Source: Psammoneis japonica (taxonomy: Eukaryota). From it: DNA of 64,000 bases. The position numbers and the translations under genes were made by a program. The stretch lies in contig QPGO01000012.1 of assembly GCA_008632985.1 (NCBI GenBank), forward strand, positions 682,001 to 746,000. Direction: 5' to 3'. Below the pieces are notes generated by a model that saw nothing but the letters and a program-made list of their open reading frames with translations, made no database searches and was not told where the DNA came from. This document shows, in pieces, positions 2,419 through 63,184 of this stretch; within the stretch, counting starts at the first letter, position 1; each line of letters starts with the position of its first letter.

Positions 2419-2419
2419 A

Positions 2420-10190: not shown

Positions 10191-11136
10191 ACAAGGATGA
10201 GGATGAGACTGGATGTTGCCAGATGTCCCATGTTGCCTGATGTGTCAAGGTAGACTGTGGATCTTTGGGGTGCTCAAAGTTCAACCAGCTCATTTCTGAC
10301 TTGCCAAATGAGTTTGACATGAAAAGATGCAAAGGTTTTGTTCTCATCAAGAGCATGAGGCAAGAGGAAAGCTCACAAAAACAGCACCATGAATGACAAT
10401 GAAGCAAACTTGACTCTCCAGTTAGCGAGTTGATGCAGAAGGTCACACCATCTTGCTCTTGGCTGGGAGTCTTGGTTGTGATCTTGGCCACTGCTTCCAT
10501 TGGGATTGTCCTGCTAATGGCATCACCATTCCTTGTCATTTTCCTCAGGTTCCTCGCCATTTTCTTCCTTTTTTCGTCATTTGACATGCTCCAAAAGTTG
10601 TGCTGAATGCTCCCCGAATAAAGTTTTGGCACTGTCTCCGTCAATTGTCAAAAAGGCATCATGTTCAACATGTTTGGTGCTCTCATGATCACAAGTGCCC
10701 TGTTCCTTTTTGAATGGCACCCACCTGGGCTCAGCTGTTTGTGTTCGTGTCGCAGGGAACTGGGTCGTTGACAGACATCCAAGATGGGGAGCACACTCCC
10801 TTGTCTTGGACAGACTGGCACAGACAGCATTGAGAGATCCGATGATCTCTCTTTGCTCACTTTCTTTCTCATCTAGTGCATGATTGTCATCTGTCCTAGA
10901 CATCAGTTAGATCGTCCCGATGCCACTGGTCCGCAAGGTTGTGAGCAGCAGTGTGCTGTTCATCTTCCTCAATGCAACTGCATTGCAACATTCACCGTGT
11001 GGTTTGGCAATGTTTCCCCGTTGAAATTGTCGTCTTTGTCACAGCCATTTTTCTCACTTGATTTGTGATCATCACGACCACCGTAGACCACATGCCAGTG
11101 CTCCACACAGGATTTTGAATTTTTTCCTGCGCAACC

Positions 11137-14100
11137 ATGGTGCCGACTGACCAAACTTCTGTCGATTTGACCAAGATCAAGTCCATGCAAGTCAAATTCA
11201 GACCGCAAAATTGCTCACCTGATGCCCATTCTTACCTGAATGAACTTTGTTCCAACGCGACACCTGCTCCTGAAGATCTTCTGGACAGATTTGCTCCTCC
11301 AAGCCTCAAGCCCGACACAATCGCAACCATCCGTTGTGAGATTGTTCATGATCTAGTCATCCTCAGGCCACCTTGACTGAGGACCTCAAACGGATTGGAC
11401 CACTCATTGATGAAGCTCCTCTCTTTGTGGCTGCCCCTCAAGATGCTCCGATCCATCTGAACCACACCAATCTTCAGAAGGCCATGATCAAAGCAATCTC
11501 AGATGATCAAGACACCACAACAACATGTGTTGGGACTGTCAGTCTCTTCTTTCATCCTGGTTTTGAGAATTGTCTGTGTTGGGATGACATCTCTGATGCT
11601 CCACACCCACCACCAGTGTCTCCCCCAAGTTCTGTGTCTCAATCGACCGCCACTGCAGGCCTGACTCCTGAAGATTTTGCTGAGGCCTCAGCTGCTCATT
11701 CACCTGGTCCACAACAGTTTGAGCAAGCTGTGAGCAAAGCATTGAAGACCTCTGCGGCTTCTGTGCCACCTCCTGCACCTTCTGCCAAGACCACTGCTGC
11801 TGCGGTTTCTTCCTCAACAACCACTGGTGCCATGTGCACCTTCAATCTGAAAGGACTTCCAAAGGATGCACCAGCTCGCTGTCAATGCAAGGAAGCCGGG
11901 AGAGTGGTGTCAGGGAAGTCACTGGTGCCTTGCAAGTTGGGAAATCTTTGCTGTGAAGACGGTGCTGAATGCCTCATTCTTGCTGATGGTTCACTCTTTG
12001 TCCATCGTGTTGATTGGGTTGCCAAGTCATTTCTTTGTGATGCTTTGACATGTGATGACATTTCACCTTAAGGAATCCAAGCATGGCACACTGCAGCAAC
12101 CCAACAAGCCTCGGCCTGTGGCACACACATGCATCCCCCATGGTGGTTCATCAAGGATGGTGGAAACTGGGGTTTCACGTGTGGCAACAACCCAACTGAT
12201 GACCTGCCACTCCGCATGTGTGTGCCTCTTGACCACATGAAGCTTGCACTTTTTCAGCACATCCAGAAGGTTGGGGTTTTCCCAGCTGATTCCAAGCACA
12301 CAGACATTGTTCGCCAATGCCATGGAGATGGATGTGCTGCCCTCAAGATGACCCCATTTGACATTCTCCCAATCTGGACTAAGCAACCATGTGAGCTGAT
12401 CAAGAGCCACCCACACCAAAGCAATCTCACAATCCTCAGTTGCCATGCCCTGTTCAGGGATTTCCTCCAGCTGCGGGCCATCATTTCCAACGTTGATGCC
12501 TCTCTTGATGATCCTGGTGAGCCAGACATCTTTCTCAGCAACACTTGATGTGGAGAGCACCTGCATCGAAAGACAGTCAATGCCAGGGAAGACAAGAGCA
12601 AGCAACACAAATTCACTCAGCAGAAGATTGTTGAGACGATTGCCACGATCCTCAAGGAACCAGACAGTCCTGCTCTTCGTCTCAAGGATCCCCCCAAACA
12701 CCCTGCACAATGCCTCCATAACCAGAACCCGGCCAACCCTCCTCTTGCAGCTCCTCTTTGAGCCCTTGACTTGCTGCCCAAGGATGAGGTGCCAGACCCA
12801 CCTCCAATTGTTCCGGAAACTCCAATGGAAACTGCTCCCCCTCCTGTGGAAGAACCTGCGGAAACTGTGGAGTGCTTTGTAAATGAGCTTGCCACTGTGG
12901 AAATTCCTCCAGATGACAAGGCACAAGCACTGCACGGCATTTATGAGGCTTGCATCCACAGGATCAAGTCGTCACCCGCTGTTGCACAGACTCAACCATG
13001 TGTTGTCTGTGGTGACAGCCACTCATTCCATGAGTGCCCGGTCTTGAACAATGCCGAGTGTCTGCGTGCTCACCTCATCCAATTCTGCCAATTCCTTCAA
13101 TGTGACCAACGTGCCCGAGATGCACTCAAGGATGGCAAACCTAAAATGGATTTTTCTCAGGGCCATTGACTTGTTACATTCAGATGAACAATGCTGCCCA
13201 TCTCTTCCCAATCCAAAACTGCATGCAAGCGGGGTAGCTGCGAAAGAGGGTCTCACAGACTTGTTGCCTCCTGCTGAAATGCCTCTTTCACATGTCTCAT
13301 TTGCCGACCTTCTGTCAACCTCAACAAAGACTGGAGCTCCGGATCTCAAGACTGTTGCAGATGATGACCCTGACACCACTCATCAGGGGAGGGAAACACC
13401 TTCTCATGAACCCTCCATCAAAGCGAATGATGTCCCGCCAACCAGTGATCATGATCAAGATTTTGAGTGCATCGACATGGACACCAACCAACACCTGTCA
13501 CCTTTGAGTGCAGTGCACATCACCCCGATTTTTTCTCCTCCCAAAACACCTGTGGTTTTTGAATCTTTGACTGCTCCTGTCATCCCCATCAACCATGCAC
13601 CAAATTCTACCCCGGTCCGCTCTCTCAAAGTTGAGACTGAACGTCTCCTTTGGCATCAACGCCTTGGACATCCCAGCGATCACTGTTTGCACCATGCTCA
13701 CAAGCATGTCAAAGGGGTTCCTGAGTTCCGCCATGCCAACCCAGTTCTTGATGTTTGCCCCACGTGCATCCAGGCACAACAAGTCAAGACACCTGCCGGA
13801 CCCAACTCAACTCACAAGGCGACTCAACGCATCAAGGCCTCACTGTGGACTTTGCTTTTGCCGGTCAAGCGTCCAAGAATGAAGACCGCACGTCTGATTG
13901 TCTTGGCTGTGATGGTGAAACATGCTGGATCACCATCTATGATCATAAAACATGCATGCTTCATGGTGTTGCACGAGTCTCTGAGGCTAGTCCCCTCAAG
14001 TGGTTTTGCCAATTCCTGGATCGACACTCTCCAAATTGTCGTGACAAACATGCATTTATGGACCAGGGAGGGGAATTGTACAAGAACCCCAAAGTTTTTG

Positions 14101-17100
14101 ACCTCTTTCAACGAGAATTCCAGCATGACATTTGTCCATCTGGCACTGGCACCTCCAATCAATGTGGCCCTGTTGAACACTCACATTTGACTGTCGAAAA
14201 CGCAATTCGTGCAATTTTAATTGGTGCTGACCTCCCAATCAGATTCTGGCCCTGTGCTTTTCACCATTGCCTCCGCGTTGAGAATGCTGCTCCTGCGAAA
14301 GACCAAGATGCATCTCCTGTCACCCTTGCCACTGGAAAGGTCAAAGATTTTACTGCCCTGAAGACTTTTGGATGTCGAGCATGGGCCAAACGCTCTACAA
14401 AACGCTCTGCCACCTTTCGTTCCAACTCCAAGAAAGGTGCACTCCTTGGATGTCTCCCAAACACCCTGAAGAATGTTCTTTGGTGGGATCCAGAGACTGA
14501 CAAAGTCAAGACAGTCAAACATGTGCGACGTGACGAGGGCATGAATGACCTGTCTCTAGACCAACTTCCCCCGAATGCCACCCAGTTGCAATGCATGGAA
14601 AATGGCCAACCTTTTCCGGCTGAAACACAGGACACTGCTGTTCCAACATTTGCTTCTTCATCAAATCCTTTTGCCAAGACTGTCACTTGCACCATGAAAC
14701 GCCCTCCCCCATGGACCCTGCCTGTGGTTTTGTTTTCTCCCAGTGTCCTCTCTCATGGACCGTGTGTGTGTCTTGGAAATCAAGCAACGCAGTCCCGCGG
14801 CCTCCCCATTCTCTTCTCTCCATGCTGCTTGGAACAAGCTCATGGGTGCACATGTTGTCTCCATCAACAAGCATGAAGTCTTTATGCCACAAGATGCTGA
14901 AAAAGCACTTCTGCAGGTCTGCCATGATGAGGTCCCCATCTTTGAGATTGCTTTTGCGCCTGAACAATGTTTGGACCCTCGTGCTCTTAACAAGGCTTTT
15001 GAGGAAGTGGAGCCATTTGACCCTGATTCAATGGAGGACAATGCCCATGCACCGGAACTTGCTTTGGAGGATGTGCGATCCATCACAGCTGTTCTCTGTC
15101 CTGATGATGATTTCTCTGATGACGCTGTGCCGATGGATGTCTTCTGTGCTCATCTCCATGCTGTCAGTTCTCGTGCTGTCACTCCGGAAGAAGCTGCTCT
15201 TGATTGCGTCACCCGTGCCAAGCTCCACAAACTTGAAACATGGCCGGAATGGGAAGAAGGAGAGAAGTGCCAATTGGATCAATTTTGTGCACTTGGCACG
15301 CATGGTCCTCCACAACCACGTCCTCCTGGAGTGAATGTGTGCGTCTGCATTGGGGCCATGTGGCAAAACCAGATGGGCAGTGTTGCTCCAGACAATGTGG
15401 AGATGGACCCAAGTTGGCCATGCCAGCATTGCATGAACTGACCTCCACGCACTCTTCATGTGTGGAACGCTCGATCAAAAAGATGTTTTTTGCTCTCAGT
15501 GCTGCCATGTCTTATCGAACATGTGGTGGTGATGCCCGAGATGCATGTGCCCATTCTCCTGGTCCTTCACAATCAGTGTTTTTTGCCACTGATGATGCCT
15601 GTGCTGCATGGTGCGAAAGTCACTTTGGCAAGAAGGTGCCCCGCCACTGTGTCCTCCCCCTCAAGCATGCTCTCCAAGGCCATCCCAAGGCTGGTGTTCT
15701 GTGGGAGAAGCACATCAATTTGATCCCAGCTGGTGCAAAACTCCTCTTCCGCAACACTGCTCATGACAAGTGCATCTGCTTTGGTGAATGTGATGGTGTC
15801 AAGGTTCTGTCACTCCATCAAGTTGATGATTTTGCACTTCCTTGTCCTTCTGAGGTGGTTGCAAAGGAGATCTGTGATCATGTTGGAAAGGCTCTCCAGA
15901 TGGAGAATGAGGGTGCTCCCCCGTTCAAGCATCTGGGCCCGGCTGCTGAGTTCAATGGCGTTGGAGTCATTCAGAATGATGATTCGATCACAATCAACAT
16001 TGCCAGCCATCTTGACCACGCTTTCAAGACCCATGGATGGGACACTCCCGCTGCAAATAAAACCAAGACTGATTTCAAGGCTGTGCCTGTGCCGGTTGAT
16101 TGCACCCCTGAGCTGTGTGCCGCTGAAGGTCCCAAGGAGGGTGCCCCTGAATGTTGTGCCCTCTCTGACTCTCATGGCTTCTCCTGCCGCTCTGTCTTGG
16201 GTGAATTGGTCTTTGCTTGTTCGTGCTGTTGCTTGGATGTTGGCTGTCCCATTGTTGCTTTGTCCAAGTTCTCCAAGACTCCGGCTGACGTCCACTGTGA
16301 TTCCCTCAAACGTGTGGCTGAGGCTCGGTCTACAGGTGAACCGCGCCGGATCGGATCGCCGGATCGGATCGCGTCAGAATTCCGTTAGTCGACAGGTGGA
16401 ACCGGATCGGATCGCGGATCGGATTCGACATTTTGATGAGTCGCAAAACGACGTAAGTTTCAAGATTCCAAATTCTCAAGAACAACAAAGCACTGAAATA
16501 GCGAACAACAGCCAGAGAGAGTGTGGCCATGATGCTTCACATCTTGTCATAACGAGACGATATGACGACAGAACTATGCTGTTATTACTGCTTTACATAC
16601 TTACTTGACCGCATCATTGAGCATCATTGTCACTCAGTGTTTGCAGCACGCTAAGGAAGAAAAAGCTATCACTTTTGCAATTCAGAAACTGACGCTATGT
16701 TTTCGTATTGAAATTTCGAATTACATAATAAATACTTGTTATTTTGCTTATTCAATGTTTCTCCAACAAATCTTTACGGCATTATCGGTTTGACAAGCTA
16801 TTCTATTGCCATACGACCTTTTTCATCTCCATTTCAAGCATGGGAAGAGTAAGGCTGTAATGCTAAGGAAGTTCTGTGCCCTTATGGCTGAATGTTATGC
16901 CGCCCTGTATCATAATCGTGTGATGTTGCGCCATTGTCGTGATGACGGCACGGAATCTTCCAAATTCGATCCGACATCCGATCCGAGATGGCGGATCAGT
17001 CCCACGAAGGCCACGGATCGACTTTTTGACTCGATGGACTAACATTTTAATGGGTTATGAAGGAGTCGATCCGGCGATCCGATCCGGCTCGGTTCACCTG

Positions 17101-17670
17101 TAGACCGAGCCTGAGTGTCTGCGACATGCCAAACATTGGGGTTTGACATGTGAGAAGACTGAGCGTGATCCGGGCCTGCCTCCCCGTGATTTTGAGTGGC
17201 TTGAAGACGATCCATCCCTTCCTGAGTTCCCCCGTGCTGATGATCCTTTTGGATGCAGCACATGCCAATGAACTGTGGCGTCGCTGATCCACTGCTGGAT
17301 GTGCACATGTCCTTGCTGGTGCTACAATTGATTGTCGTTGCCACACACAGACCATCACAGCTGCCAGCTCCACCAAGGCTGAATTTCTCGCGGCTGTCAC
17401 TGGCGCCAAGGCAGACTTTGCACCTCCAAATGGTCCTCGAAGAGCTGGGTTTTCTTCAACGTGATCTTTCAACGTGATCTCACTCCCTTGCACATTGATG
17501 ATTCCTCCGCCATCCAGATGATCAACAACAAGGTGCCTGCAGAGTGCTTCCGCCACATTGACATTCAACATTTTGCAATCCAAGACTGGCGCGACGCGGG
17601 GAAATTGTCACAAGACATGTCCCGGGCGTCATTGACCCTGCTGATGAGCTGACCAAGGCTGTGGGTTGAG
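11137..17670 (+). pseudogene. Copia gag-pol polyprotein, frameshifted; protease region not recognised and possibly deleted
   Basis: ORF pieces 11137-13169 (gag), 13600-14876 (pre-integrase/integrase), 15240-16321 (RT) and 17112-17670 (RNase H). Nearly free of Tyr (DKCICFG, SCRSVLGEL, FWPCAFHH). Confidence 0.9.
16322..17111. mobile_element. PIF/Harbinger-like non-autonomous element (MITE), 790 bp, ~45-bp TIRs, 3-bp TSD (TGA)
   Basis: TIR ggctcggtctacaggtgaaccg(c/a)gccggatcggatcgccggatcg at both ends with one mismatch. TGA at 16319-16321 and 17112-17114. Subterminal ggatc repeats. Removal restores Copia KRVAE|CLRHAKHWGL. Confidence 0.9.
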
Positions 17671-17995
17671 TGCTTCATTCCCGCTGGCCCGTCATTTGAT
17701 GGGACACTGCCATTGATTGCCGTTGTGTTTTGTGTGTCTCTTTGTTTTTGCTGTTCTGGCCCTCATTTTTTTCTCGGATTGTCTCCTTTCTTTCTTGATG
17801 AGCTTTTGCATTGCTCATCAGGGGAGGGTGACAGACATCCAAGATGGGGAGCACACTCCCTTGTCTTGGACAGACTGGCATGGACAGCATTGAGAGATCT
17901 GATGATCTCTCTTTTCTCACTTTCTTTCTCATCTGGCACACGATTGTCATCTGTCCCAGACATCAGTTAGATTGTCCCGATGCTGCCAGTCAGCA

Positions 17996-20585
17996 AATCG
18001 CAACCCGAGCAACTTCTTCCCTTTGCTTCCACTTCACGGCCTTGGTTTTGGTCTCTTTTTTCTGCGTGTCTTGGATTTGTTGGCTCTCTTTGGCCTCCTC
18101 TTTGGCCTCCTTCTTGACCATTCCAAACAACTCTGTTTCGATCTTTGACCACTCAACTCGCTGACTTGAATTCATGACAGAAGCAGCCAGGGCATTTGCG
18201 CCCAACTGACGTGTTTTGTGGTGAAAAAGATTGGGGAGAATGGTGTGGAGAGCCCCTGTCTGGTTGATTTTGCACTTGAATTTTCCTTGGACGACAGCCA
18301 GACGCTTTCGGAACAACATTGTTCTGAGGAAGAACAACATGTCCGGACCAATGGCTGTGTCAGGGAAGCAAAACGGTGGCACCGTGCCTTCGAACCGAGC
18401 CTTCATTGACTTTCTGAGCCAACCTGGGGTTCCATCAACATCTTCCAAACAATCACATGCAAGAACTCCACAAGACGATGCCCTTGGGACAAAAAAGTTG
18501 CCACAGTCGCCGATGTCATTGTGTGGCTGTTCTTTCAACACCTTTAAAAAGTTTTGTTGAATTGCGGGAAGCATGAAATGCTCAAAGCCACTTTTTAAGT
18601 GAGCTGTTCCTTGTGCCATTGCCATTTCTGTCTTGAGCAATGTCTGCATGTCAAAAAAGTTGATGCACGCCTGCACCATGAGAGGTTCATCAATCTTGCA
18701 ATGGACGGTTGTCTCACCGGTGTTCTCATCGCTGACTGCCATCAAAACCGATGCAACCCCAGCCCGGATCATCTTGGCGGTTTTGTCACGCATCACTGTT
18801 GACCATGCAGACAAAGCACATGCAAAAGCTGCGTTTTTCACTCGACATGACACCATGTGCTGGGTGTCAAACTCAGCTTTTCGAGAATGCAGATTTTGCA
18901 CCATCGTGCATGCAGAAGCCCCATCTGAGGTCCAGGAGAGTCTGCGCTCCCTGTCGGCTCTTTCTTGCCTGGCGGCATTTTTGATGTGTCAGTCAATGGC
19001 TTCGATGATCGGGGCTTCTGCAGACTCAATCTTTCCAGGGGGCTTTTCATGGTTTTTCTTGCCTTTCTGCTGCAGAAATGTCTCCACAAAGGTGGCAACC
19101 CACCCAGGCCGACTGCGCAACCATGTTGCAACGTGCTTGACCAAGCAGTTCCCAATCTTTTCCAGATTCAAGAATTTGTCAAGATGGGGCGCAACCTTTC
19201 CAACATCCAATGGGTCAAGTTTGAAGAAGACAAGAGGGCATGGTCGTGGCTTCATTCCCAAGGAAGCTGCCTCTGACAACAATGCATCAACAGAGAGCCC
19301 CGTGCTGCCAAACACTGGACATCTCAAAAAGCTCTCTGTGTGGGCTGGGGTTGCAAAACCATGTGCAAATGCCTTGTGGGCTGATGTTTCATGATTGCCA
19401 TCATCAGACAGGAAGAAATGTGGCAGCTCCTCCTTGAGAGCTTGCGCTTTGTCAATGAAGCATGCCACATGGCCATTTGATTGGGGGACGTCATTTGGCA
19501 ACCCTTTCTTGAACCACTCATTCGACAAAATCTGGAAAATGTCTACCCCGAGAAGCTCTTCTGGGTGCATCGGAAAGAGCAGCCACTGACGGCAGCTCAT
19601 CTTGTCTTTGTCAAGTTTCTTTTGAAGGCAACAAAACACAGTTCTCCATGCGGCAGTCAACATTTCCAAGTGGCGGGTCACAACGTCACAATTCGATGTG
19701 GATGTCTCAATGCATTCTGCATTGTTTGTGGTGCTGCCAGTGCCGTCTTTTTGTTTTGCTGGAAGACTGACAAGGTTTTTGTGTCCATTGATGGTTGGCT
19801 TGTTGGCTTGCAGTCGAACGCGATCTGGCAAGGACCTCGCATCCTTCGATCCGGGATTCATCAAGACATCCACCACAAAGTGTAAAATCCATTGTTTTCT
19901 GAAAGACACTTGAACATTCTTCTTGTCTTGCCCACCCCCGACGTTCCAAAAACTGAGGTTGGCCTCTTCGGAGTGCTCGATTCAATGTGATTGTAGACTC
20001 CCGACTGTTTGTCAATGTTGTCCAGGCCGCAAAGAAGAAGCGATGGCTGCGCCTTCCCCGGAATGCAGGGAATCTTTGATTCTTTCTTGAACAAACAGTG
20101 CTGGAACAAGGCATCATTTGGAGGACAAAAATTTTGAAGGCTTGGAACATGCCCCTTCCAAAATTTATCCAGTGGTTTCTCACATGCCAACACAGCACTC
20201 TCGGGTGATGGTGGTGATGGGACAGGGACGTTGGTGGGAGGAAAAGCCCAGTTAAAGAGAATGTTGCAGACAGCAGGGCAAAAAATTTTGTGGCACTTCT
20301 GCAGTTCAGCTTGGAAGGCTTGTTTGTCCCCAGCGGGCATGATGTTCTTCAGACTCTCTTTGGTTCTGACTCGCATTTAACAAGCTCGGCAAGAGCCACT
20401 GTCACATTCTCGTGATTTTGCGACTTCTCAAGGCGAGTTGCCAAAATTTTGTACAAGTCCATCCAATTGGTCTCTTCCCACCCCTCTCCCACCTTTTCCG
20501 AGACTTTTGCCTGGATGTCATCATCGCTCGTGGTTCCCTCCACAGCACTGTTCATAACGAGTTGTTGGTTTGTGTCGGCGATCAT
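17996..20585 (-). pseudogene. degenerate Crinkler/RHS-type P-loop NTPase + restriction-endonuclease-fold gene, probably continuing at 10768-~10100 beyond the Copia insertion
   Basis: Walker A 'VFGTSGVGKTRRMF', Walker B-like 'ACFIDKAQ', 'LRSRPGWVATF', and C-terminal 'FCFPDTAIGPDMLFFL...LAVVQGKF' (PD-(D/E)xK-like). Several frameshifts and Tyr->Cys/His changes. Confidence 0.6.
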
Positions 20586-32249: not shown

Positions 32250-34244
32250 CTACCAATCCCCACCGTATCCGTCGCCAGTCGCAAGAGCATCCTTGTGTCC
32301 ACCTGCCACACGTCGCGCATCCTTATCAATCTTTGGACAATTCAAAACCGTGTGACCCAAACCACCACAAAAGCTGCAACCACCACCGTCATTGTTGTCT
32401 CGGGGATCATCCAACATCATGAGCACGGGAGGAATCCGCTGTCGCGCTTCCTTGAGCAAGTGTTTCAAATCCAACAAGGTTGTTTCTTCACACGATTTGT
32501 TGATAAAGGTTGTCGCGACTCCCGTTTTGCCACATCGTCCTGTACGTCCAATGCGATGGACGTAGTTTTCAATCTCCGAAGGCATGTCGAAATTTATAAC
32601 ATGTTGAATATCGGGGAAGTCCAGGCCCTTTGCCGCAACGTCCGTCGCCACCAAAACGTCCTTCTTACCCTCCTTGTAAAGTGCAATAGCTTCGTTGCGT
32701 TCCTCTTGATCCTTGCCTCCATGAATACTGACAGCCTCGACGCCCTTGAGCAAGAGGTATTCGTGAATGTCATCGACATCACCCTTGCGTTCACAAAAAA
32801 TCACCACAGGCGGCGCTGTTTTTTGCAAACAATGAAGCAGGTAAACAATCTTCGCTTCCTGCTTGACATATTCCACTTCTTGAATGACATCCAAGTTGGC
32901 GGCACCGGCCCGACCGACATTGACCACGACGGGTTTGACGAGCGTCTCGCGCGCAAAGTCTTGAAACTTTTTCGGAAACGTTGCACTAAAAAGCAGTGTC
33001 TGGCGTTGATGGGGAAAGTAGTTCATAATTTCCCCCACCTCCTCATCAAAGCCCAAGTCGAGCATTCTATCGGCCTCATCTAAACAGATATAACGACAAT
33101 TCAAAAGATGGACCGATTTGCGTTTGAGAACATCCCGCAAGCGCCCCGGCGTAGCAACAATGGCATGAATTCCGTGCTGCTGAATGGGTGCCAATTGATC
33201 GCGGACCGATTCACCTCCAATCAGGAGTTGTGTACGCAAGCTGGGATAGGATTCTTGACTGGAAATGGCATCGCAAAAGCTCTTGACCACGTCATAGGTT
33301 TGTCTAGCCAATTCTCGACTCGGGGCTAGAATGATTCCAATCGGCCCTTCTCCCGGCAGTATGGGGAGACGCAACTCTTCTTCCAGCGCCGCCATGACCA
33401 GTGGCAACGAAAAGGTGATGGTTTTTCCCGATCCGGTAAAGGCAATTCCCACCATGTCCCGTCCTGCCAAGGCTACCGGCAAGCCCTGCATTTGAATCGG
33501 CGTGGGTCGCTTGATTCCTTTTTGATCCAAAGCATCCAAGACACACTGTGGAAACTTCATGTCACAAAAGCGCTTCATGGGTGGTGGCACATGCGTTCCC
33601 TCCACTTCCATGTGCCACTCTTGACGAATCTTTTCCCACGCCTCCGGACCCTGCTCTAATATATACCGCGGTGCCGTCCATGTAGACGGCATGGATTCGG
33701 TATAAATGACACCCTTGGCCAATTCCGAAGCCGCCTGGAGCGCATTTGTCTGAACTTGAGATGCTTCCTTTAGAATGCGCGATTCTTCTTCCTGACGATG
33801 GAGTGCTTGTCGTTCTGCTTCAGACCGTGACGACTGCAACGCGGCGGCTTGTTCCAATAACGAAGCAGCGGCTGCCTGCGTTTCTTCCAATTCCTGTTGT
33901 TTCTTAGCTTCCTCGTCTTCTTCTTCTACATTTTCTACTTGCTGTTGCTCTTCTTCTTCATCATCATCTTCTTCATCTCTTGCTGTTGTTGTTGGCTTGC
34001 TGACACCCAGTGCTTGAAGTTGTTTTCGGTGTTTTGCCTTGCTACTTTTAGACGACGCCATGAGCAAGGCCTCTTGTTCCAAGCGTCGACGCTTTGCCAC
34101 TGAAACATACGGTACATAATCACCGCTAATCGAAATTTCCTCTTCCTCTGCTTCTTGTTCTTGTTGCCGCTTGCGCTGACGCTCCAACTTTTTACGCTTC
34201 CATTCTTCTACTTTTCGTTTTTCTTCTGAATCCGACAAGCTCAT
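32250..34244 (-). CDS. DDX41: DEAD-box RNA helicase DDX41/abstrakt (plant RH35 type)
   Basis: Q motif PTPIQMQG, AFTGSGKT, PSRELA, DEAD, SAT, HRIGRTGR, N-terminal 'YVPYVSVAKRR', C-terminal knuckle CSFCGGLGHTVLNCPK. No introns. Start taken as MSLSDSEEK at 34244. Confidence 0.95.
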   Translation of the reverse strand: MSLSDSEEKRKVEEWKRKKLERQRKRQQEQEAEEEEISISGDYVPYVSVAKRRRLEQEALLMASSKSSKAKHRKQLQALGVSKPTTTARDEEDDDEEEEQQQVENVEEEDEEAKKQQELEETQAAAASLLEQAAALQSSRSEAERQALHRQEEESRILKEASQVQTNALQAASELAKGVIYTESMPSTWTAPRYILEQGPEAWEKIRQEWHMEVEGTHVPPPMKRFCDMKFPQCVLDALDQKGIKRPTPIQMQGLPVALAGRDMVGIAFTGSGKTITFSLPLVMAALEEELRLPILPGEGPIGIILAPSRELARQTYDVVKSFCDAISSQESYPSLRTQLLIGGESVRDQLAPIQQHGIHAIVATPGRLRDVLKRKSVHLLNCRYICLDEADRMLDLGFDEEVGEIMNYFPHQRQTLLFSATFPKKFQDFARETLVKPVVVNVGRAGAANLDVIQEVEYVKQEAKIVYLLHCLQKTAPPVVIFCERKGDVDDIHEYLLLKGVEAVSIHGGKDQEERNEAIALYKEGKKDVLVATDVAAKGLDFPDIQHVINFDMPSEIENYVHRIGRTGRCGKTGVATTFINKSCEETTLLDLKHLLKEARQRIPPVLMMLDDPRDNNDGGGCSFCGGLGHTVLNCPKIDKDARRVAGGHKDALATGDGYGGDW

Positions 34245-35310
34245 GTTGTTGTTACGTGTACAGAGGTAAGGTAAAGGTTGCTTAAGAACACTTGTAAAAG
34301 AGGATACAGTACCAAAAGGGCAGAGCAGAATAAGATAGTGATGTTGTTGATTTTGTTGCTTGCTGCCTGATGCCAGAAATGAGAAAGAGACTTCGGCAAT
34401 TTTTTCATGTTCGTGGCCGGTTAAAGGAAAAGAGAAAAAAAGAGGGGAATCAACCGTTGAACACACACACACAATTGACCATGCAACCATGGCCAGAGTT
34501 GCACTGGCTTCTTTTGATCCAGGGTGGTTGCTGCAGGTGCAAAGAGTGGGGCACATTGCAGTTGCAGGAGGGTGACAATGTGGCACTGAGTGTGTGCCAC
34601 CAGGCTGAGCAGCCCAGCTTGGGTGTCAGCCAAGCCCTGCCAGGCCAGCTGCCCTGGCTCCAGCTGCTCTTCCCAGTGTGCGTGAGTTGTTGAAGGAGCA
34701 CCACATTGACTCAAAGGCTGTGTTTTAAGCAGGGCAGAGAGAAAAAAACTGTTGTCTTGGCTGGTGCTTGCTTCAGACCCTGCATCATGAGCGCAAGCTC
34801 CTCTTGAGAAATGAGCGAGAACAGCCATTTTTGGTGCCTCTCTTTGGTTGCCCACTTGGCATTGCCAACAAATCTTGAACCAAACTTCACTCACAGTTTC
34901 TTCACTCTTCAACCACAAAACCAGGTTCAACTTTTTGTTGGCTTCTTTGTGGCTGGGGTCGCTGTTGCAGGCACAAATGGTGGGCACATGCCATGTGGCT
35001 GCTTGGCAACAAGAATGTGATGCCAAGCATGTGCTGCACACCAAGGAGCCAAGCAGCCCAGCTTAGCTTTGAATGGAGCCCCAGGACAGCAGCCAACTCT
35101 GGGTGATCTCAGCATGGTGTGCTTGTTTGGGCTGTGCTGCACTCACCCCACAGTGCTCTGTGTTGTGGTGGCTTGTTGTGCAAGCCGTGTGGCTGAGGAG
35201 CCAGCAGCCAGCCAGGGCCCATCTTGCAAAGGCCACACATGTTGACCCTGTGCAAAGCTGTGTGAGGGGGCAGGCACAGGGATTTGCAATGATGGCTTCA
35301 CAGCCATTGG

Positions 35311-35530
35311 CCCCAAGTTGGCATTTGATTGGGAGCCAGTGCTGAGGGGCTGTGAAGTGTGGGGTTGGGAGCCCAGCCAGCTCGCACTCTCTTTGTTGTC
35401 ACAAAGTGCTGCCACAGCTGTCTTTGCATTGCAACCAGCCAGGTGCGGTTGACCCCAAGTTGGCACTTGATTTGGAGTGACTGCCAAGGAGCTGTGAAGT
35501 GTGGGGTTGGGCAGTCCAGCCAGCTCACAC
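35311..35530 (+). repeat. degenerate direct repeat (~142-bp period)
   Basis: ccccaagttggca(t/c)ttgatt...gctgtgaagtgtggggttggg...ccagccagctc occurs twice. Confidence 0.7.
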
Positions 35531-36816
35531 TCTTTGCTGACAGCAGAAAGCGCTGTCGCAGCTGTCCTTGTGCACACATGGCCAGAGCAGCCTTGGCACA
35601 TCCTGCTGACAAAACTGACAAAGACAGCGACTCTTGTGGTTGAGCCACTCAGCACGCAGGAGATCTGGGCACACTCCTGGGAAGTCAAACAGGAAGGAGG
35701 GCTCAGCATTGCCGCCAGTGCCAGGCACAAATGTCAGCTTGTCTTGAGAGAGATTCGAGCCCACACAGCCCCGCGTTGGGCATCTTTGCTGGCAAAATGG
35801 AAAGCATTCTTGAGCACATTCTGGCATGTGGGCAGCACTGTCGCCAAGAGGGCTGCTCTGCAGAGGAAGAGGGAAACAGGCAACAACATTTTGCAAGAAC
35901 TGTTTTGTGTCAATGGTCGGGTGGGATGTGGCAGCATCTGGACTTTGATGGAGCATTTGGCGGACAAAGCTTGAGCACAGAGAGTTGTCCACTCAAGCTC
36001 CACAAGTGGCACTTTCCAAAGGTGACACCACACATGGGCCATGTGTTCATGCATCAACATGCCTCAAGCTGCAAGTCACATAAAAAAACCACCACCAACC
36101 TTTCAACCAACCACCATCATGGACAGAACAGGTCAAGAGGTTCAAAACAAGAGCGATTCATTGACTCTCTTCTGGTTCCATGCATTCAAGAGCTTCTTGT
36201 CCTTCTCAAATGTTTGTTGTGCATTGTTGTCTCTTTTAATTCAAGTGCAAAGAGGAGTCACTTTTCTTGTTTCCATCTCTTGAGATGTTGTTGGTTGTTG
36301 AGTGATGCAATTTTTGTTGTCACATTTTTGGAAATGTTGGCAAACCCGATCACTGCTTGATTGTCAACCCATTTACTGTTTTAAGTCTCCATGGCATAAA
36401 ATGCCATAATTCCAGAGCCCTCAATTGTTTCATCAAACGCAGTGCTTTGAAACACGTCCAACATCAACTCGACTCAGTTGAAATCCCAGTTTGTGGGCGA
36501 TGAAAAATCACGAATGTCAAACAAATGGCTACTTTCGACATCAAGATCCCCGAGTTCAATCCAAATGTGACGGTACGCCTCACAGCTTATGGCCATGACA
36601 CATACAAGCATGCCTCATTGTTGTCATCGCGTCGAGTACTCGTATCGAAAATGCCGATAGATCAAAGTTCAGGAAAAGGATGGAATACAAATTCATTTGT
36701 GTATTCATTAGTGGCATTGGCGTAATGATATTTACGGCAGAAGCAATCTAAAATCCTTATTCATCATTGACATTTCTGTATTGCTCAGATTTTGAAATCT
36801 GACCACTACCGTTAAG

Positions 36817-36934
36817 CATTTAGCTGTCTTTGTATGGAAGTGGAAATGACACTTAACGATTTACACTAACCATTTAGCTTTCTTTGTGTCGAAGTGGAAA
36901 TGACACTTAACGATTTACACTAACCATTTAGCTT
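36817..36934 (+). repeat. 54-bp tandem repeat, 2.2 copies
   Basis: catttagct.tctttgt.t.gaagtggaaatgacacttaacgatttacactaac at 36817 and 36871, partial copy at 36925. Confidence 0.9.
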
Positions 36935-37030
36935 ACTTTGGCTCGAAGTCAGACAAGGAGATTGGGCTATGGGCTTATCGTTAACCAGCCACGAGCATGA
37001 AATCTTTACCGAGACTTCCAACTTGTTGTT

Positions 37031-42339: not shown

Positions 42340-43260
42340 TGCCTTTTTCTGACGGTGCAATGACGGTTCTTACCTGCCTGTTCAGACGTGTTCCTTCATC
42401 GACATGCCATTGTTCTGTGATCATTGACAATCTCATGCAGTGGAAAACGAATTGCACCCAGCTCTCTTGGCTCAATTGCTTGACGTTCTTCTTGGTGTTT
42501 TTTGTTCTCGCGTGCAAAGTTTCTACACAGGTCTCAGCACAAATTCCACGTGTTCTGCAAGTCATTTCAGACAGACAACTCGTCAAACTGCCGATTGCTC
42601 TTTCTCCATGCCTCTCAAGCATCAACGACCCCCCTTCTCTCTGTTGTCTGTTCAAGTTTCCTGTGTTGTGTGGTGAACATCTTCCTGTTGTTGTTCCTTT
42701 TCAGAAGTTTGAAGAAGAGACCAATTCAGTGTGCATTGGCCAACCTTTCGCGTGCCGACAAGTCCACACAAGTCTCAGCACAAGTTCTGCGTGTCAAGGA
42801 AATGTTTTCAAACGGCCGATCTCCCAATCTCTTGACTGCTGTCTGTCCATGCCTGCCAAGCTCCAAAGACCGCCCCTCTGCCTGCTGTCCTTTTAAGTTC
42901 TCTGCTTTGTGCAGCGAATGCCCTTCCATCTTTGCTGCTTCCAGAAGTGTGAACTCGAGATCAACTCGGCTTGATTTGGCTCTTTGCCTGTTTGCTGATG
43001 CTTCCTGCCAAGTTCCTGCACAAGACTCAGCACAAGTTCTATGTGTCACAAAAACATTTTCTGACGGCCTGTTTTCCGATCATCCGATGGCTCTCCATCT
43101 GTGCCTGCCAAGCTCTAACGACCCCCCCTTTTCTCAATGCCTTTTTAAGTTCTTTGCTCTGTGTGATGAACTCCTTTTTGTTGTTGCTGCTGCCAGAAGT
43201 TTGATTTTGAGACCAACTCGGTGGTTGGTGATGTTTTGGTCCCTGTTTGTGAAATTTACG
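42340..43260 (-). pseudogene. degenerate coding sequence with three ~80-84-aa tandem domains
   Basis: Repeat anchors ctcagcacaa at 42533, 42774 and 43026. Translations 'CRTRGICAETCVET', 'RRTCAETCVDL', 'HRTCAESCAGT'. Family not recognised. Confidence 0.5.
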
Positions 43261-45373
43261 GTGTTTGCTCTGTTTCAGATCCCTTCTCACTTTGGAATGT
43301 TCCAACATGGCTTGCTTCAGTGGAATGATCAGATCCAGTCAGAAGCAAAGAGCTGTTCCATTGCTGTGGTTTCTAGTGCTTTGAAGGTGCCAAATCAATT
43401 TGCTGTTGCTGTCTGCAACACCACTCCCAACTGTTCCCGGCGGGCATCATCATTTGTTGGTGACGCCCATCTTGGCTGATCGCAGTGCATTCCTGTCGCA
43501 CTGTTGGTGTGCTGGGGGTGTGGGTTGGCTTGTTGCCGGAGTTGCAGGGCGGAAGTGCAGCAGCACTTTAAACATAGAATTTTGGTTTTGTTTTGGCTTG
43601 TTGGTGAGGTTGGGAGGCAAACATTGCTTTGTCAGCACAAATGACATGGAATTTGTTGCAAAGTGCAGCGGGGGTCATTTTTGGCCCTTGCCACACAAGC
43701 AGGGGCGCACCATTGTTTGGTCTCATGCAAGTTTTGAAAAACAAAGGAGATGAACGCCAGTGCATTTTGCTTGCAAAAGTGTCAGTGAGTGTGTGTGTGT
43801 GTGATCAGCTTTGAGTTTGATCACAGGGGATCAAGAGTTGACTGTGTGAAATCCAGGTTGAGCCAGGAGTTTGTGCATGATGGGTGATGCACAGGATTCT
43901 GGCATGAACACATTTGAGAGCTCTGATGATGGAGTTGGTGTTGGAGCATCTGGACAAGCGGAAAATGTGAGAAACCTGGAAGTGAGTCTGTTGAAGAGAA
44001 GATGATGCTTCAGATCCTGATGAGGCAGACATTTTTACAAACGTGCGTTTGTTGCTGATTTCACCAACCTTCTTTTTAGCTCACTCTTTGGAGTGAATTG
44101 TGTGGTTTGTGCAAACTGCATTGTGTGGCACCAATGAGCACCCTTTCATTGCCTTTGCACCATGAGAACATTGAGAGCTTCCAGGCAAACCACAACCACC
44201 ATGGAAACCAGGACAAGTGCAACAAGCAGCACATGAGACCTTGGAAGATTGCCTTCTGGTGACATTGACTTGTCGGCTCTAAAAAAATCGGACCTCAAAC
44301 AAAGTGTTTTTTTTTTAAACTTTCATGAGTGTGTGCACCTGACACCAAGTTGTGCTTGCAGTGATCAGCGCCCCCCCCCCCCCATCTGAAGGGCTTGTCC
44401 AGAGCACACACACACACATCACAGTTTTGTCGCACCCATTTGAGGATGGACACACAGGGATGAGGGCAGATGTTGTTTGCATGATGCAATTGTCCCACAC
44501 CTCACATGTCATTGGACCTGCCTCAGAGCACCCCCAACACTGGTTTGTTTGTCAAACCCTTGTCAGGGCCACTGGGCAGCTGCAAAAGAGATTGCTTCAA
44601 CAGCTGCCACTTGTTTGCCCATGCCCTGATGTCTGATTGAAGCTCCTGCTGGTTTTTGCCAAAAACAGCTTTTTTGTGAGAGACAAGCCGCAACTTTCTG
44701 GGGCGCAGCAACAAATGGCATTTTGCTGGCTGTTTGCATGTCTGCAGCTGCCAAACTGGAGATCTTGCATTGTTGCACCCATTGTCTGTGCACTCTGTTG
44801 TGTCTGACAAGCTGACAAAGTTCAACTTTTTGCTGGAGTTTCATTTTTGGCAAAGTGCAAAGATTTGGTGTGACACATCCGGGCATTTTCAAACAGCTGT
44901 GTGCCCACAAACATCTGCCCTCCACCCCCATGTTGTGTTCGTCATTGTTGTTTGCTGTGATGTGTGACGCCACACTCTTGAGAAAATGATGCTGCGCTGC
45001 ATTTGTTGAACAAAATGTTCAGTGCTCAGCTCTTTGGCTTGCAGACACTGTTTTTTTGTGCAGGGTCCTGCACGTGCTTTGGCCAGACCACAGCATGACA
45101 GAGTTGCTCTGCAGACAACAAAGTCAGAACTGAGGCACTGCTTCACAGCATGTTTGAGCCGAGAGGATGACTGAGGATCAACACATGTGTTGTTTTGGTG
45201 GTGGGGTTCTTGGCACCATTGTCTCAAAATGCAGTGTTCCACCACATGACATGAAAATCAATGTCAAAATTAAATCAGGCCATGTGCACAAAACATGTGG
45301 AAGCAGCACTGTGATGTGCCAAATGAGTGATTCGGGATTTCCTCATGGACATTTGTCACTTGCCGGAGGAAGC

Positions 45374-45642
45374 TGTTTTTGGCATTTTGCTTTGCTTTGC
45401 CACTGTCAGATGATGCCACAAGCAAGACCTCTTGTTCCAAGCATCAATTTTTTGCCACTGAAACATGTGGTGCACATCACCGATGCATGAAAATCCCTCT
45501 TCTTCTTCTGCTTCTTCTTGTCGCTGCTTGTGCTGGCGCGATGCTCCAGCTTTTTGCACCCCCTCCCGTTCTTCTGCTTGCTTTTCACTTTTTTTTTGCA
45601 TCTGAAGAGCTCATTTTGTTGTGATGTGCAGGGCTGCAGAGG
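45374..45642 (-). pseudogene. mutated duplicate of the 5' end of DDX41 (source 34021-34266)
   Basis: Colinear match, e.g. agcaaggcctcttgttccaagcgtcgacgctttgccactgaaacatacggtacataatcaccg vs agcaagacctcttgttccaagcatcaattttttgccactgaaacatgtggtgcacatcaccg. Confidence 0.85.
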
Positions 45643-45881
45643 AAAAAAGGAATTGGTTCCCAGATCCAAGAGTGTGGGTTGTTTTGTGTGGTTGTGTTGT
45701 GCTGTTGTCACTTGTTGCGAAAATGGATTTTATATTATTTTAGCTTATGTAGATTTTTTATACCATATTTAAATACACATATTCATTGAATTTCAAAAAT
45801 AACGGTCGCATCAGTTGAGTCTCTGGTCTCAACATCACAACATCTCGCAAAAATAAAGAACGAGGCAACTAACCCACCATT

Positions 45882-56052: not shown

Positions 56053-57336
56053 GTTGTTGATGAGTTAGTTTGAACAGAAGTTCTTCCTCTCAATCACACA
56101 CACCTTTCCTGCACAATGCGTCGCCGTTGTCAGTTGTCATTTTGATTTTCGATTTTCGATTTTTTTTCTGGGTTCGCTGTTTCCGCGTTGGTTGTTTCGC
56201 GCATTTTTGCGCGATCATATCTCCGGGTGATACGTGGCTGATTCTCCGACGACTTGATCGCGAGTGAAGACATGTGTCATCCCATCCTTGTCATGGGAGT
56301 TATGATTTGGTTCACTGTCAACAAGGAATCCCGTGCTGCCAGGTTCCGCAGCTTTTTTGACAGTTGTGTACACATTGACAAGGTGGTGGTCAAGGGCACC
56401 AAAACAATTCCCACAGAGTCGTCGACCCACACTGTCGCAACCAATGATGTGGCGACACACTGAAGCTCTGCATCAATGGAGAGCTGGATGGCAAGGTTGA
56501 TGTCAGCACCAAAGGACCCTGCTGTTCCAATCAGGCACCATTGAGCATCATGGGCTCACATGTGGGAGAGACTCGGTCGGACAATCGGGACTTCCATTGA
56601 GGGCACATGTGGATGCGGTCTGCATGGTGCATGGTGTCTGCAGCACATGGCAGTTGAAACACAGACCGTGCATGCGTGCACTCATGATCCATCACAATGC
56701 AAAACACAAAATGAGTGATGGCAACTCTCCAATCAATTTCAGGGATTCTATCATCATCGTCATCATTTTGTGCTGGCACTGGTGGAGATGGAAATGCACC
56801 CATCATGCTCATGCCACCCATTGCCATGTTGCCACCATTGCCACCCATCATTTGCACAATTTGCTGGAAAATCATTTTCCTTCCACTTCAGGAGGGACGC
56901 CACTGCCACCAGGACCACCACCACACTGGACATTTGGTGCCTCCAAAGAAGACTTGCATTTGTGCCCCACCATCAAAAGTGCCACCCAGCAAGTCGACAT
57001 TGATGTTGGGGTTGCCACCTTCAGGAATTTGAACAGGAACCTCCACAACATGAGCTTCTGCTTGTGGATCATTGCCTTCTTCAGCATTGTTTTGACCCCC
57101 TGCACCAGCTGTGCCCTGTTGTTGCTGTCCTGACTGCCAGGAGCAGTGGGAATGACCGAGTCTCCACAAAGGCCACTTGTTGTTTGTGGGTCTGACACTT
57201 GTGCACCCTCAGATTCTTCCCATCCACATTCTTTTGGTGTTCGCGTCTGTGCAAATGGTTCACCTGTTCAGCGCCAGTGCTGCCCTGCATTGCAGAAGAA
57301 CATGGCCCGGAGTTGAGATGTGCAAAAAGGCTCACA

Positions 57337-62086: not shown

Positions 62087-63184
62087 ATGAAAACCACCTA
62101 CAATCTCTTTGTCCTCTCCACCCTCCTTGGGATCGGAGCTCATGGCGTTACTGCCAACGTAGAGCCAACATGTGGTGAACCTCCATACAACAAACGAAAG
62201 GACAGGGCCGTTTTTCTCTGGCGAAAGTGCTTTTCTTCCGAGTGGTACTTGGAAGCCGCTGGAGGTAAACTACCTGTGTCAGTCACTGCCAACTTGGTGG
62301 CTGATGCATCCGACATTGCTATCAACAAAAAGGCCGTCGGGGTTGAGTTGAACAAGGACTTCACAATCAATGTCCCAAAGAAAAAGAAAGATGGCTTCAA
62401 ATTCATCGTCAAGGATGATGGGAGTGGATGTTTGACTGTCAAGACGCCTGAAGACATCCCCCTGTATGTTGGTAAGAACCGCGTGGCGCTTCCTACCAAA
62501 TCCATCAGTGTCCCCGGCTTGAGGCCATGCGATGGACCGATTCTCGAATACCGTTTTGATACTTCTCGCACCCTTTTCAAGGACACGGGAGCAAATGGAT
62601 GGGACGGCACAACTGCACCAGGAAGAGGCAGGATATCATACACCACTTTGGGTCATTCCAGGTATGGAGCCAGCTTTGATGGGAGGAACGATCAGATGGT
62701 CATCCAAGAAGCCAAAGACCTAAGCATGGACAAGTATACCATGATGGCATGGGTTCGCTACTCTCAAACTACAAATGCTGAATTTGCCTATGTGATTGCT
62801 CTAAAAACGTCAGCCATTTGGCTCACCATCAACAAGGAATCCCGCACTGTCAGATTCGGGGGCTTTTTCGGCGGTTGTGCTCGGAAGAACCTTACGTTGC
62901 TAAAAGGTACCAAACCAGTTCCAACAGAGTCCTGGACCCACATTGCTGCAACCAACGATGGCGATTCATTGAAGGTCTATATCAATGGAGAACTGGACTC
63001 AGAAATTGATCTCGTAACTAAAGGAACCTATTGTTCCAACAAGGCACCGCTTAACATTGGCTCCTATTTGGGAGAGAAGCAAGCGGAAGATAGAAATTTC
63101 TTTCGTGGATACATGGACACTTTCCGCGTCTACGATAAGGATCTTGGTCAAGACGAAATCCGTTCCGAGATGTTCCGTCACTAG
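62087..63184 (+). CDS. secreted protein with a C-terminal LamG-like/concanavalin A jelly-roll domain
   Basis: Signal peptide MKTTYNLFVLSTLLGIGAHG; 'GASFDG', 'YTMMAWV', 'WTHIAATNDGDSLKVYING', 'LNIG...FFRGYMDTFRVYDKDL'. Confidence 0.88.
   Translation: MKTTYNLFVLSTLLGIGAHGVTANVEPTCGEPPYNKRKDRAVFLWRKCFSSEWYLEAAGGKLPVSVTANLVADASDIAINKKAVGVELNKDFTINVPKKKKDGFKFIVKDDGSGCLTVKTPEDIPLYVGKNRVALPTKSISVPGLRPCDGPILEYRFDTSRTLFKDTGANGWDGTTAPGRGRISYTTLGHSRYGASFDGRNDQMVIQEAKDLSMDKYTMMAWVRYSQTTNAEFAYVIALKTSAIWLTINKESRTVRFGGFFGGCARKNLTLLKGTKPVPTESWTHIAATNDGDSLKVYINGELDSEIDLVTKGTYCSNKAPLNIGSYLGEKQAEDRNFFRGYMDTFRVYDKDLGQDEIRSEMFRH

Follow-up and report, generated by a model that had tools for sequence, protein, structure and literature searches.

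The locus considered here raises the question of why one of two versions of the same gene segment has lost nearly all of its TA and CG dinucleotides, while the other has kept a normal composition at a distance of 11.35 kb. Both lie in a window of 64 kb (the whole stretch of DNA that was analysed), which is nuclear DNA of a diatom. An initial annotation had described the pair as a duplicated fragment of a DDX41 gene, converted in the copy and untouched in the parent, and the strings that it quoted in support are present in the window at the positions it gave for them.

The DDX41-like gene and its dead copy

The locus is made up of the following features:

32250..34244, minus strand: intact, intronless coding sequence of a DDX41-like DEAD-box helicase of 664 aa (open frame, orthologues, Pfam)
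34016..34277, minus strand: parent segment, i.e. the 5' leader and the first ~76 codons of the DDX41-like gene, with 10 TA and 16 CG
45369..45647, minus strand: dead copy of the 5' part of the DDX41-like gene (blastn, purine/pyrimidine-coded match, translation, tblastn)

The 664-aa ORF carries the Pfam domains DEAD and Helicase_C and is 63-80% identical, in best local alignment, to orthologues, some of which bear the name 'ATP-dependent RNA helicase DDX41' or else 'DEAD/DEAH box RNA helicase' in their sources and several of which come from named diatoms (Nitzschia, Fistulifera, Fragilariopsis, Thalassiosira and Chaetoceros). The copy has the same orientation as the gene and comprises ~33 nt of leader and ~76 codons (aa 1 to ~76). 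When the window was compared with itself by blastn, positions 34016-34258 matched 45369-45628 with 72.4% identity over 261 columns (E 7.6e-34), and this pair was the sole one among 17 self-blastn pairs to touch either region. A comparison in purine/pyrimidine coding matched 34030-34277 with 45388-45647 at 88% and reached ~33 nt upstream of the ATG (34244). The homology originally delimited as 34021-34266 and 45374-45642 is real, and under this coding it runs slightly further, to about 34277 and 45647.

Read from its ATG, the translated copy displays three in-frame stops as well as frameshifts. A tblastn search of the 64-kb window with the DDX41-like protein returned one fragment, whose hit spans aa 45-71 only, and no further DDX41 pieces. 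As part of the whole explanation that is preferred below, the copy is probably a non-functional 5' fragment of the neighbouring helicase gene that was duplicated in direct orientation. A processed (retro) pseudogene was considered and rejected, the copy being a 5' fragment that ends without poly-A or poly-T. Neither of these tracts was present at its ends, no retroelement features were seen to flank it, no terminal repeats bounding it were found, and Pfam had no credible match for any of 14 ORFs from the flanking DNA (43805-45772).

A k-mer contig assembled from the raw reads of run X1 showed 0 differences from 44373-45620 at a depth of ~40, which excludes an artefact of the assembly or of the consensus; this run is probably the assembly's own sample, and would hence represent the same isolate and not an independent one. 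A sequencing artefact in the form of miscalled modified bases was also rejected, since the raw-read contigs match 44373-45620 and the copy additionally differs from its parent by transversions and gaps.

Substitution pattern and direction of the change

The global alignment of parent and copy contained 191 matches, 53 mismatches (37 transitions and 16 transversions) and 21 gap columns. Within 45369..45647 the copy has no TA and five CG. None of the ten TA of the parent segment was kept: five became TG, two CA and one GA, and two fell in indels. Among the 16 CG, nine became TG, three CA, one CC and one TT, one was deleted and one was kept. Seven TA and 12 CG were thus changed to TG or CA, in agreement with the claim that the copy had been converted.

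The initial annotation had made its reading depend on TA being substituted more often than other A/T sites. Once the alignment was run, changes were found at 10 of 19 A/T positions within TA and at 16 of 116 other A/T positions (Fisher p 4e-4). Likewise, 15 of 30 C/G positions within CG were changed, compared with 12 of 79 elsewhere (Fisher p 4e-4), and with transitions alone the figures for TA sites and other A/T sites were 7 of 19 and 10 of 116 (p 0.003). Expressed per site, change affected ~51% of TA and CG sites and 14% of all others. A/T sites outside TA (14%) and C/G sites outside CG (15%) were changed to a similar extent, so that no general drift from AT to GC was at work. At the background rate of 28/195, the loss of all ten TA has a probability of 1.8e-6 and the loss of at least 15 of the 16 CG one of 2.9e-8. 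The count given earlier for a quoted 25-mer (TA to TG twice, TA to CA once and CG to TG once) is correct, with the proviso that a 1-nt deletion leaves the third TA ambiguous. No context effect was seen when the alignment was read in reverse and the copy was regarded as ancestral.

Every Tyr codon contains TA. The residues specified by the Tyr codons (TAT) and Arg codons (CGN) of the parent in the duplicated part are kept by the closest diatom orthologues, and so is the motif with the parent's two Tyr and its Lys-Arg-Arg-Arg run. Over its full length, the parent protein retains every conserved Tyr (10 of 10) and most conserved Arg (38 of 42). The parent gene had been called untouched, and its composition supports this: TA o/e and CG o/e are 0.53 and 1.33 in the duplicated part, compared with 0.41 and 1.01 in the rest of the coding sequence. 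Because the orthologues keep the Tyr and Arg residues of the parent and the parent segment is undepleted, the change occurred in the copy, and the direction first proposed, from parent to copy, holds. Conversion, its direction and its dinucleotide specificity can be regarded as demonstrated.

Conserved Tyr and Arg codons were used for polarity in place of synonymous sites. The duplicated N-terminal region is poorly alignable even with the closest orthologues, which are 73-80% identical overall. The DDX41 relatives found at 24 metagenome loci are mostly at most 73% identical at the protein level; the only higher one (locus L024, 84% in its best segment) matches residues 252-610 alone, outside the duplicated N-terminus. 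TA o/e fell below 0.15 in 4 of 682 windows over the loci of these 24 relatives, all four in two loci of 65-71% GC, and the loci in question are short, gene-dense contigs that are little informative about repeats.

TA-poor blocks of the window

TA-poor DNA amounts to 37,128 bp of the window (about 58%) and contains 3.56 TA per kb; for the 20,351 bp of normal DNA, the figure is 37.9. The TA o/e of the TA-poor DNA is 0.03-0.11, as opposed to 0.45-0.55 in gene-bearing blocks, and its TG and CA o/e rise to about 1.8, a gain that matches the loss of TA and CG. Many TA-poor blocks have a CG o/e of 0.17-0.3. In blocks 1-8000 and 20900-24200, however, a TA o/e of ~0.1 is combined with a CG o/e of 0.7-0.97, and the loss of TA is therefore separable from that of CG. 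The share of TG in TG+CA was 0.47-0.59 across 12 TA-poor segments, and this near equality indicates that both strands were affected about equally. The TA-poor DNA of the window comprises decayed retrotransposons (a reverse-transcriptase remnant and a Copia element were recognised by Pfam), elements of high copy number, single-copy DNA and no fewer than two fragments of host genes.

The stretch 29857-30304 is partly converted and retains some TA. Among the surviving TA, the context YTAR was enriched, at 0.19-0.34 of the normal density, and hardly any TA was left in RTAY (0, 0, 0 and 0.08). A strand-wise 'TAY' target model drawn from these contexts failed its direction test, with 8 cases for and 8 against.

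The surroundings of the copy and of its parent are defined by two further features:

44317..45730, no strand: TA-free zone around the copy, with 1 TA in 1,414 bp and single-copy k-mer depth from 44350 on
34395..37010, no strand: high-copy unit adjoining the DDX41-like gene (shown by k-mer depth, a contig that ends at 34394, and joints of 37008/37010 to 34393/34395)

The zone around the copy has a TA o/e of 0.01 and a CG o/e of 0.22, with values of 1.86 for TG and 1.97 for CA. Its right edge is abrupt: 45300-45699 contains no TA and 45700-45799 contains 12, the change taking place within about 30 bp. Beside the parent gene, depletion of TA sets in at the left insertion edge of the high-copy unit (34395); this unit is TA-poor up to about 36330 and TA-normal at 36340-37010 (TA o/e 0.62). 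Such sharp limits are a demonstrated property of the conversion.

Copy number was taken from k-mer depth at 90% likeness or more in a single run (X1), a measure that older, more diverged copies would escape. Depth was 40-90 in genes, 40-70 at 44350-46500, ~5,700-7,900 at 34368-36971 and 54,588 at 38708-39141. The DNA directly around the copy is accordingly single copy at 90% likeness or more, and its initial description as a repeat block is inaccurate. A run of uncertain read type (X2, labelled 'DNA?') covered some TA-normal parts only, and none of the TA-poor parts examined.

A second converted host-gene fragment

Another gene fragment and its parent segment occur in the window:

56305..56609, plus strand: second converted host-gene fragment, corresponding to aa 246-345 of a laminin-G-like gene (blastn, tblastn in two frames)
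62816..63115, plus strand: parent segment of this second pair, within the ORF 62081-63184 (Laminin_G_3 domain) (blastn, Pfam)

The two segments share 71.5% identity (E 1e-31, blastn), and the fragment is situated at the left edge of a TA-poor block. All ten TA of the parent segment were lost in it, five of them to CA and two to TG, which strengthens the earlier suggestion that duplicates of host genes are also targets. When both polarised pairs are taken together, TG or CA replaced 14 of the 20 parental TA, and none of the 20 was kept; these two are the only polarised gene-fragment pairs in the window, with 20 TA sites in all. A purine/pyrimidine-coded self-search found no converted gene fragments within the 64-kb window beyond the DDX41 and laminin-G-like ones, and tblastn with both proteins agreed.

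It is worth noting that the DDX41 and laminin-G-like fragments both sit at the edge of a TA-poor block adjoining a gene.

Repeat pairs and the Copia-type element

Repeats located inside TA-poor DNA provided a view of the conversion that does not depend on a living parent. The pair at 8490/20859 differed by 31 transitions and 2 transversions, with 8 adjacent CA/TG doubles and 12 CG/TG or CA/CG differences, and the pair at 5235/5571 by 18 transitions and no transversion, with 6 CA/TG doubles. Such adjacent doubles are evidently the mark of one ancestral TA or CG that was resolved differently in each copy. Repeat pairs of this kind combine near-saturated conversion of TA and CG with a background divergence of ~1%. 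Conversion after duplication, and independently in each copy, is demonstrated by these comparisons.

One of the converted retrotransposons was sufficiently preserved for a comparison with proteins:

10769..17997, plus strand: decayed, converted Copia-type retrotransposon (Pfam gag_pre-integrs and SH3_retrovirus, LTR alignment)
10769-10937 and 17829-17997, plus strand: probable LTR pair of 169 bp, flanking the Copia genes in the right order
16318-17115: TIR-bounded young insert inside the converted Copia element, itself unconverted (TA o/e 0.64)

The element was compared with 24 homologous proteins, a position being considered conserved when the same residue was present in at least 60% of the homologues. 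At the ten conserved Tyr positions, the element had five His, three Cys, one Trp and a single remaining Tyr, and the other conserved residues were kept (12 of 13 His, 6 of 6 Trp, 3 of 3 Cys and 18 of 19 Gly). Among aligned cells, 164 Tyr cells of the homologues corresponded to 76 His, 47 Cys and 13 Tyr in the Copia element. Replacement of Tyr by His or Cys is the change predicted by a conversion of TA to CA or TG.

Selection, pairing and editing before integration

A distribution of this kind might arise without any targeting, if a genome-wide pressure removed TA and CG, selection protected the genes and the dead copy simply drifted to neutral equilibrium. The TA content of genic DNA is indeed already lowish, with o/e values of 0.41-0.53 in the DDX41-like gene and 0.45-0.55 in genic blocks. 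However, DNA beside genes that holds no long ORF keeps its TA (o/e 0.55 at 28600-31050, 0.75 at 34245-34394 and 0.77 at 45731-46018), and so do the codon 3-1 boundaries of the DDX41-like coding sequence (o/e 0.64). Purifying selection on the gene, which the initial annotation had named as able to give the same picture, is weakened as an alternative by such non-coding-looking DNA, whose TA o/e is 0.55-0.77 and not 0.01-0.05. Drift also accounts poorly for a TIR-bounded insert and a high-copy stretch (36340-37010) that are both TA-normal, for an edge at which 400 bp without TA are followed by 100 bp with 12, and for repeat pairs that are nearly saturated in conversion while their background divergence is ~1%. 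An origin without targeting is therefore considered unlikely.

Pairing of homologous sequences, as in RIP, is about as unlikely. Duplicates would in this case be recognised and mutated, and the parent gene would have been spared by chance, or else the lineages in which it was hit would have died out. That conversions postdate duplication and are independent in each copy would fit such a mechanism, as would the high copy number of many TA-poor blocks, and the DNMT4 enzymes carried by diatoms are relatives of fungal RID according to the available part of PMC9998398. The parent segment is nevertheless undepleted, the high-copy stretch 36340-37010 is unconverted, and the change consists of A:T to G:C at TpA, not of C to T. 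In Bigelowiella natans, a single-copy region is affected by a comparable change, as described in the available part of the preprint (bioRxiv 10.64898/2026.01.13.699255). The extent of the conversion also argues against pairing with the parent as the trigger, since the TA-free zone is five times longer than the homology (1,414 bp, compared with ~260 bp at 72% identity) and is single copy by depth.

The initial annotation had preferred targeting by chromatin domain to pairing. The size of the zone and its single-copy depth favour this preference as far as pairing is concerned; the chromatin domain itself is less secure. Being repeated or lying in TA-poor DNA is not sufficient for conversion, as 36340-37010 and 16318-17115 are unconverted. 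Since both keep normal TA, and since the TA-poor state sets in at the edge of an inserted element, targeting of elements or episodic activity fits the data as well as a spreading chromatin state does.

Editing before integration can be given a somewhat lower probability than pairing. It supposes that an ADAR- or APOBEC-like activity deaminated retroelement RNA or cDNA, together with a co-packaged or template-switched 5' end of the DDX41 mRNA. The fragment does begin ~33 nt upstream of the ATG, possibly at an mRNA 5' end, retroelements are found among the converted DNA, and ADAR-type enzymes usually prefer U before the edited A, as stated in the available part of the preprint (bioRxiv 10.64898/2026.01.13.699255). 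However, TG and CA are nearly symmetric, the fragment comes without flanking retroelement features or poly-A, and the entire 1.4-kb zone around it is converted. The Copia element also bears on this point. Its 169-bp repeats at 10769 and 17829 are probable LTRs; a purine tract abuts the right one on its upstream side, and their 5-bp flanks agree in purine/pyrimidine code. LTRs are identical at integration. These two differ by 14 transitions and 2 transversions, with 4 CA/TG doubles, and 13 of the 14 transitions are at CA/TG, CG/TG or TA/TG sites (TA- or CG-derived), which indicates a process that would act after integration, on DNA.

In the least probable alternative, the copy would descend from a different DDX41-like paralogue or pseudogene, TA-poor beforehand and located outside the window: the search for a source covered the 64-kb window, but the homology includes ~33 nt of locus-specific 5' leader and reaches 88% in purine/pyrimidine coding, the closest orthologues are themselves poorly alignable in the N-terminal region, and the window contains one DDX41 fragment only.

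Proposed process

The explanation that we consider probable is a region-targeted hypermutation of TpA to TpG or CpA, acting on DNA in place, accompanied by CpG decay, independent of pairing and later than the duplication of the DDX41 fragment. The 5' fragment would first have been duplicated 11.35 kb away from its gene, after which nearly all of its TpA and CpG would have been turned into TpG or CpA by transitions. Its conversion would belong to a process that affected entire blocks and removed the TA of about 58% of the window. This process would act on DNA in place, after integration or duplication, on each copy separately and about equally on both strands, and would stop sharply where gene-bearing DNA begins. 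Its trigger would be the location or the kind of DNA (silenced or foreign-type), rather than pairing of the fragment with its parent.

The CpG part might most simply be due to deamination of methylated cytosine, and the TpA part bears the marks of the A:T to G:C hypermutation, restricted to TpA, that was measured in B. natans. As for the chemistry at TpA, adenine deamination of the ADAT/TadA type or a mutagenic modification of thymine may be guessed at, and the two would look the same in sequence. We infer that the process is region-targeted, enzymatic in nature and akin to that of B. natans.

Implications

As far as a literature search shows, TpA-specific A:T to G:C hypermutation of DNA is known from one 2026 preprint on one chlorarachniophyte, and a full-text search found no report of TA-depleting hypermutation in diatoms. 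The window displays the same signature, at saturation, in a diatom, i.e. in a different major lineage and one of great ecological weight. The DDX41 fragment represents a clean natural experiment in this respect, for its ancestral sequence is given by a living parent 11 kb away and is confirmed by orthologues; with the ancestral sequence known, the direction of the change, its specificity and its restriction to the copy can be read directly. A host gene was hit as well as transposons, and the process thus appears blind to the origin of the DNA. The fragment also favours the view that a paired partner is not needed.

On a broader and more tentative level, a DNA editor that is sequence-agnostic and region-targeted may exist in diatoms. 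It would clear TpA out of silenced DNA, be it a transposon, a repeat or a stray gene fragment, and would operate alongside CpG methylation and without pairing. It could be the same system as in Bigelowiella and an ancient genome defence of SAR, relying on an adenine or thymine chemistry for which no natural DNA enzyme is known. The targeting signal, the enzyme and its sharing across SAR become testable in diatoms, several of which are genetically manipulable. There are practical consequences as well. Gene finders are misled by TA-poor blocks, in which the lack of TAA and TAG stops leaves long spurious ORFs, and similarity searches miss the transposons that such blocks contain.

Comparison with known systems

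The copy resembles an ordinary gene-fragment pseudogene, such as filler DNA or a captured fragment, in being a 5' fragment with stops and frameshifts and without function. It departs from neutral drift, however, in that TA and CG sites are ~51% changed, compared with 14% elsewhere.

RIP consists of C to T changes (CpA to TpA in Neurospora) and creates TA. The process described here shares with fungal RIP its action after duplication, its dinucleotide specificity, its restriction to transitions and its killing of transposon copies, which diverge at target sites. In contrast to RIP, it destroys TA, with a component of A:T to G:C at TpA. RIP moreover needs paired duplicates and hits both, whereas the DDX41-like parent has stayed intact and conversion extends over 1,414 bp, far in excess of the ~260 bp of homology.

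ADAR/APOBEC hypermutation is similar in its deamination-type transitions and in favouring particular neighbours (T or U in front of the edited A). It would take place before integration and be strand-biased, whereas in the window the probable LTRs differ and both strands are affected alike.

CpG decay by deamination of 5-methylcytosine explains the conversion of CG to TG or CA (12 of 16 in the copy), as well as the low CG o/e (0.2-0.3) that many blocks have. It leaves the loss of TA unexplained, and this loss occurs without that of CG in 1-8000 and 20900-24200. Diatom TEs are methylated, in a DNMT5-dependent manner in Phaeodactylum, according to the available part of PMC9998398.

The closest parallel is provided by B. 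natans, as reported in the available part of the preprint (Mettrop et al., bioRxiv 10.64898/2026.01.13.699255). Mutation-accumulation lines of this alga yielded 302 nuclear single-nucleotide mutations, 231 of them in two viral regions integrated into the genome; with a single exception, these 231 were changes of A to G or of T to C, and every such change was on TpA. The rate was about 1000-fold over background, and both regions are silent, one of them being single copy. The B. natans genome also contains clusters that are depleted in TpA, enriched in CpA and TpG, and rich in reverse-transcriptase and DDE domains. An ADAT2-like adenine deaminase was suggested by the authors as a possible agent (bioRxiv 10.64898/2026.01.13.699255).

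Several differences separate the two cases. The lineage is a diatom (Stramenopiles) here and belongs to Rhizaria there. Depletion is far deeper in the window (TA o/e 0.01-0.1 over ~58% of it) than in the viral region, for which the available text gives a Rho of 0.45. The targets are retrotransposons, unclassified repeats and host-gene fragments in the diatom and, as described there, giant-virus inserts in B. natans. CpG decay accompanies the loss of TA in many blocks here, and the term 'CpG' is absent from the available text of the B. natans paper. Finally, a de novo rate was measured there, whereas the diatom signature is read from sequence alone.

The likenesses concern the core of the process. 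In both organisms, transitions on either strand turn TpA into TpG or CpA, and the change is confined to discrete regions beside normal DNA (here 3.56 compared with 37.9 TA per kb). No repeat is needed in B. natans, where, according to the available text, a single-copy region is affected; in the window, 44350-45651 has a single-copy k-mer depth at 90% likeness or more, a level at which older, more diverged copies would go unseen.

Sequence contexts of TpA loss

Over the whole window, the 132 TA dinucleotides left in the TA-poor blocks, where TpA has been converted to TpG or CpA, were not randomly distributed among sequence contexts. TTAG, TTAA, CTAA and CTAG retained 19-34% of their density in normal blocks, whereas ATAC, ATAT and GTAT were absent, against 156 occurrences counted in normal blocks. 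Loss of TA was not always accompanied by loss of CpG: blocks 1-8000 (GC-rich, 0.58, and containing a reverse-transcriptase remnant) and 20900-24200 displayed observed/expected (o/e) ratios of 0.7-0.97 for CG despite a TA o/e of about 0.1, which suggests either two separate processes or the existence of unmethylated converted DNA.

Repeats, insertions and duplicates

The following features were considered:
16318-17115, insert of about 800 bp within the converted Copia element (10769-17997, forward strand)
29857-30304 and 30525-30907, tandem duplicate in otherwise TA-normal surroundings
34395-37010, high-copy unit beside the DDX41-like gene
38708-39141, extremely abundant repeat
45369-45647, converted dead copy of the start of the DDX41-like gene
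56305-56609, converted laminin-G-like gene fragment

Each of the two host-gene fragments occupied the extreme margin of a TA-poor block, adjoining a gene-bearing block.

The insert in the Copia element was flanked by 49-bp inverted repeats (96% identical) and had normal dinucleotide ratios (TA o/e 0.64, CG o/e 1.34); it is either a young insertion or exempt from TpA conversion.

k-mer depth in run X1, raw reads probably from the assembly's own sample, was about 54,600 for the extremely abundant repeat, some thousandfold the depth of single-copy DNA, and about 5,700-7,900 for the high-copy unit. Copies of the latter were joined head to tail (37008/37010 to 34393/34395), with 4-6 variable letters in between. 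Its left 1.9 kb were TA-free, its right 0.67 kb (36340-37010) were normal for both TA and CG, and a Pfam search of the unit gave no match. Contigs of run X2, a second run from the same sample labelled 'DNA?', covered only some gene-bearing, TA-normal parts of 33500-46500 and none of its high-copy TA-poor parts; this run may be a transcriptome.

The tandem duplicate looks like a partly converted stretch. Over a 145-bp part, one copy had 3 TA and its partner 11, and changes had occurred at 10 of 22 TA sites versus 3 of 68 A/T sites in other contexts (p = 2e-5). This duplicate may offer a view of an early stage of TpA conversion.
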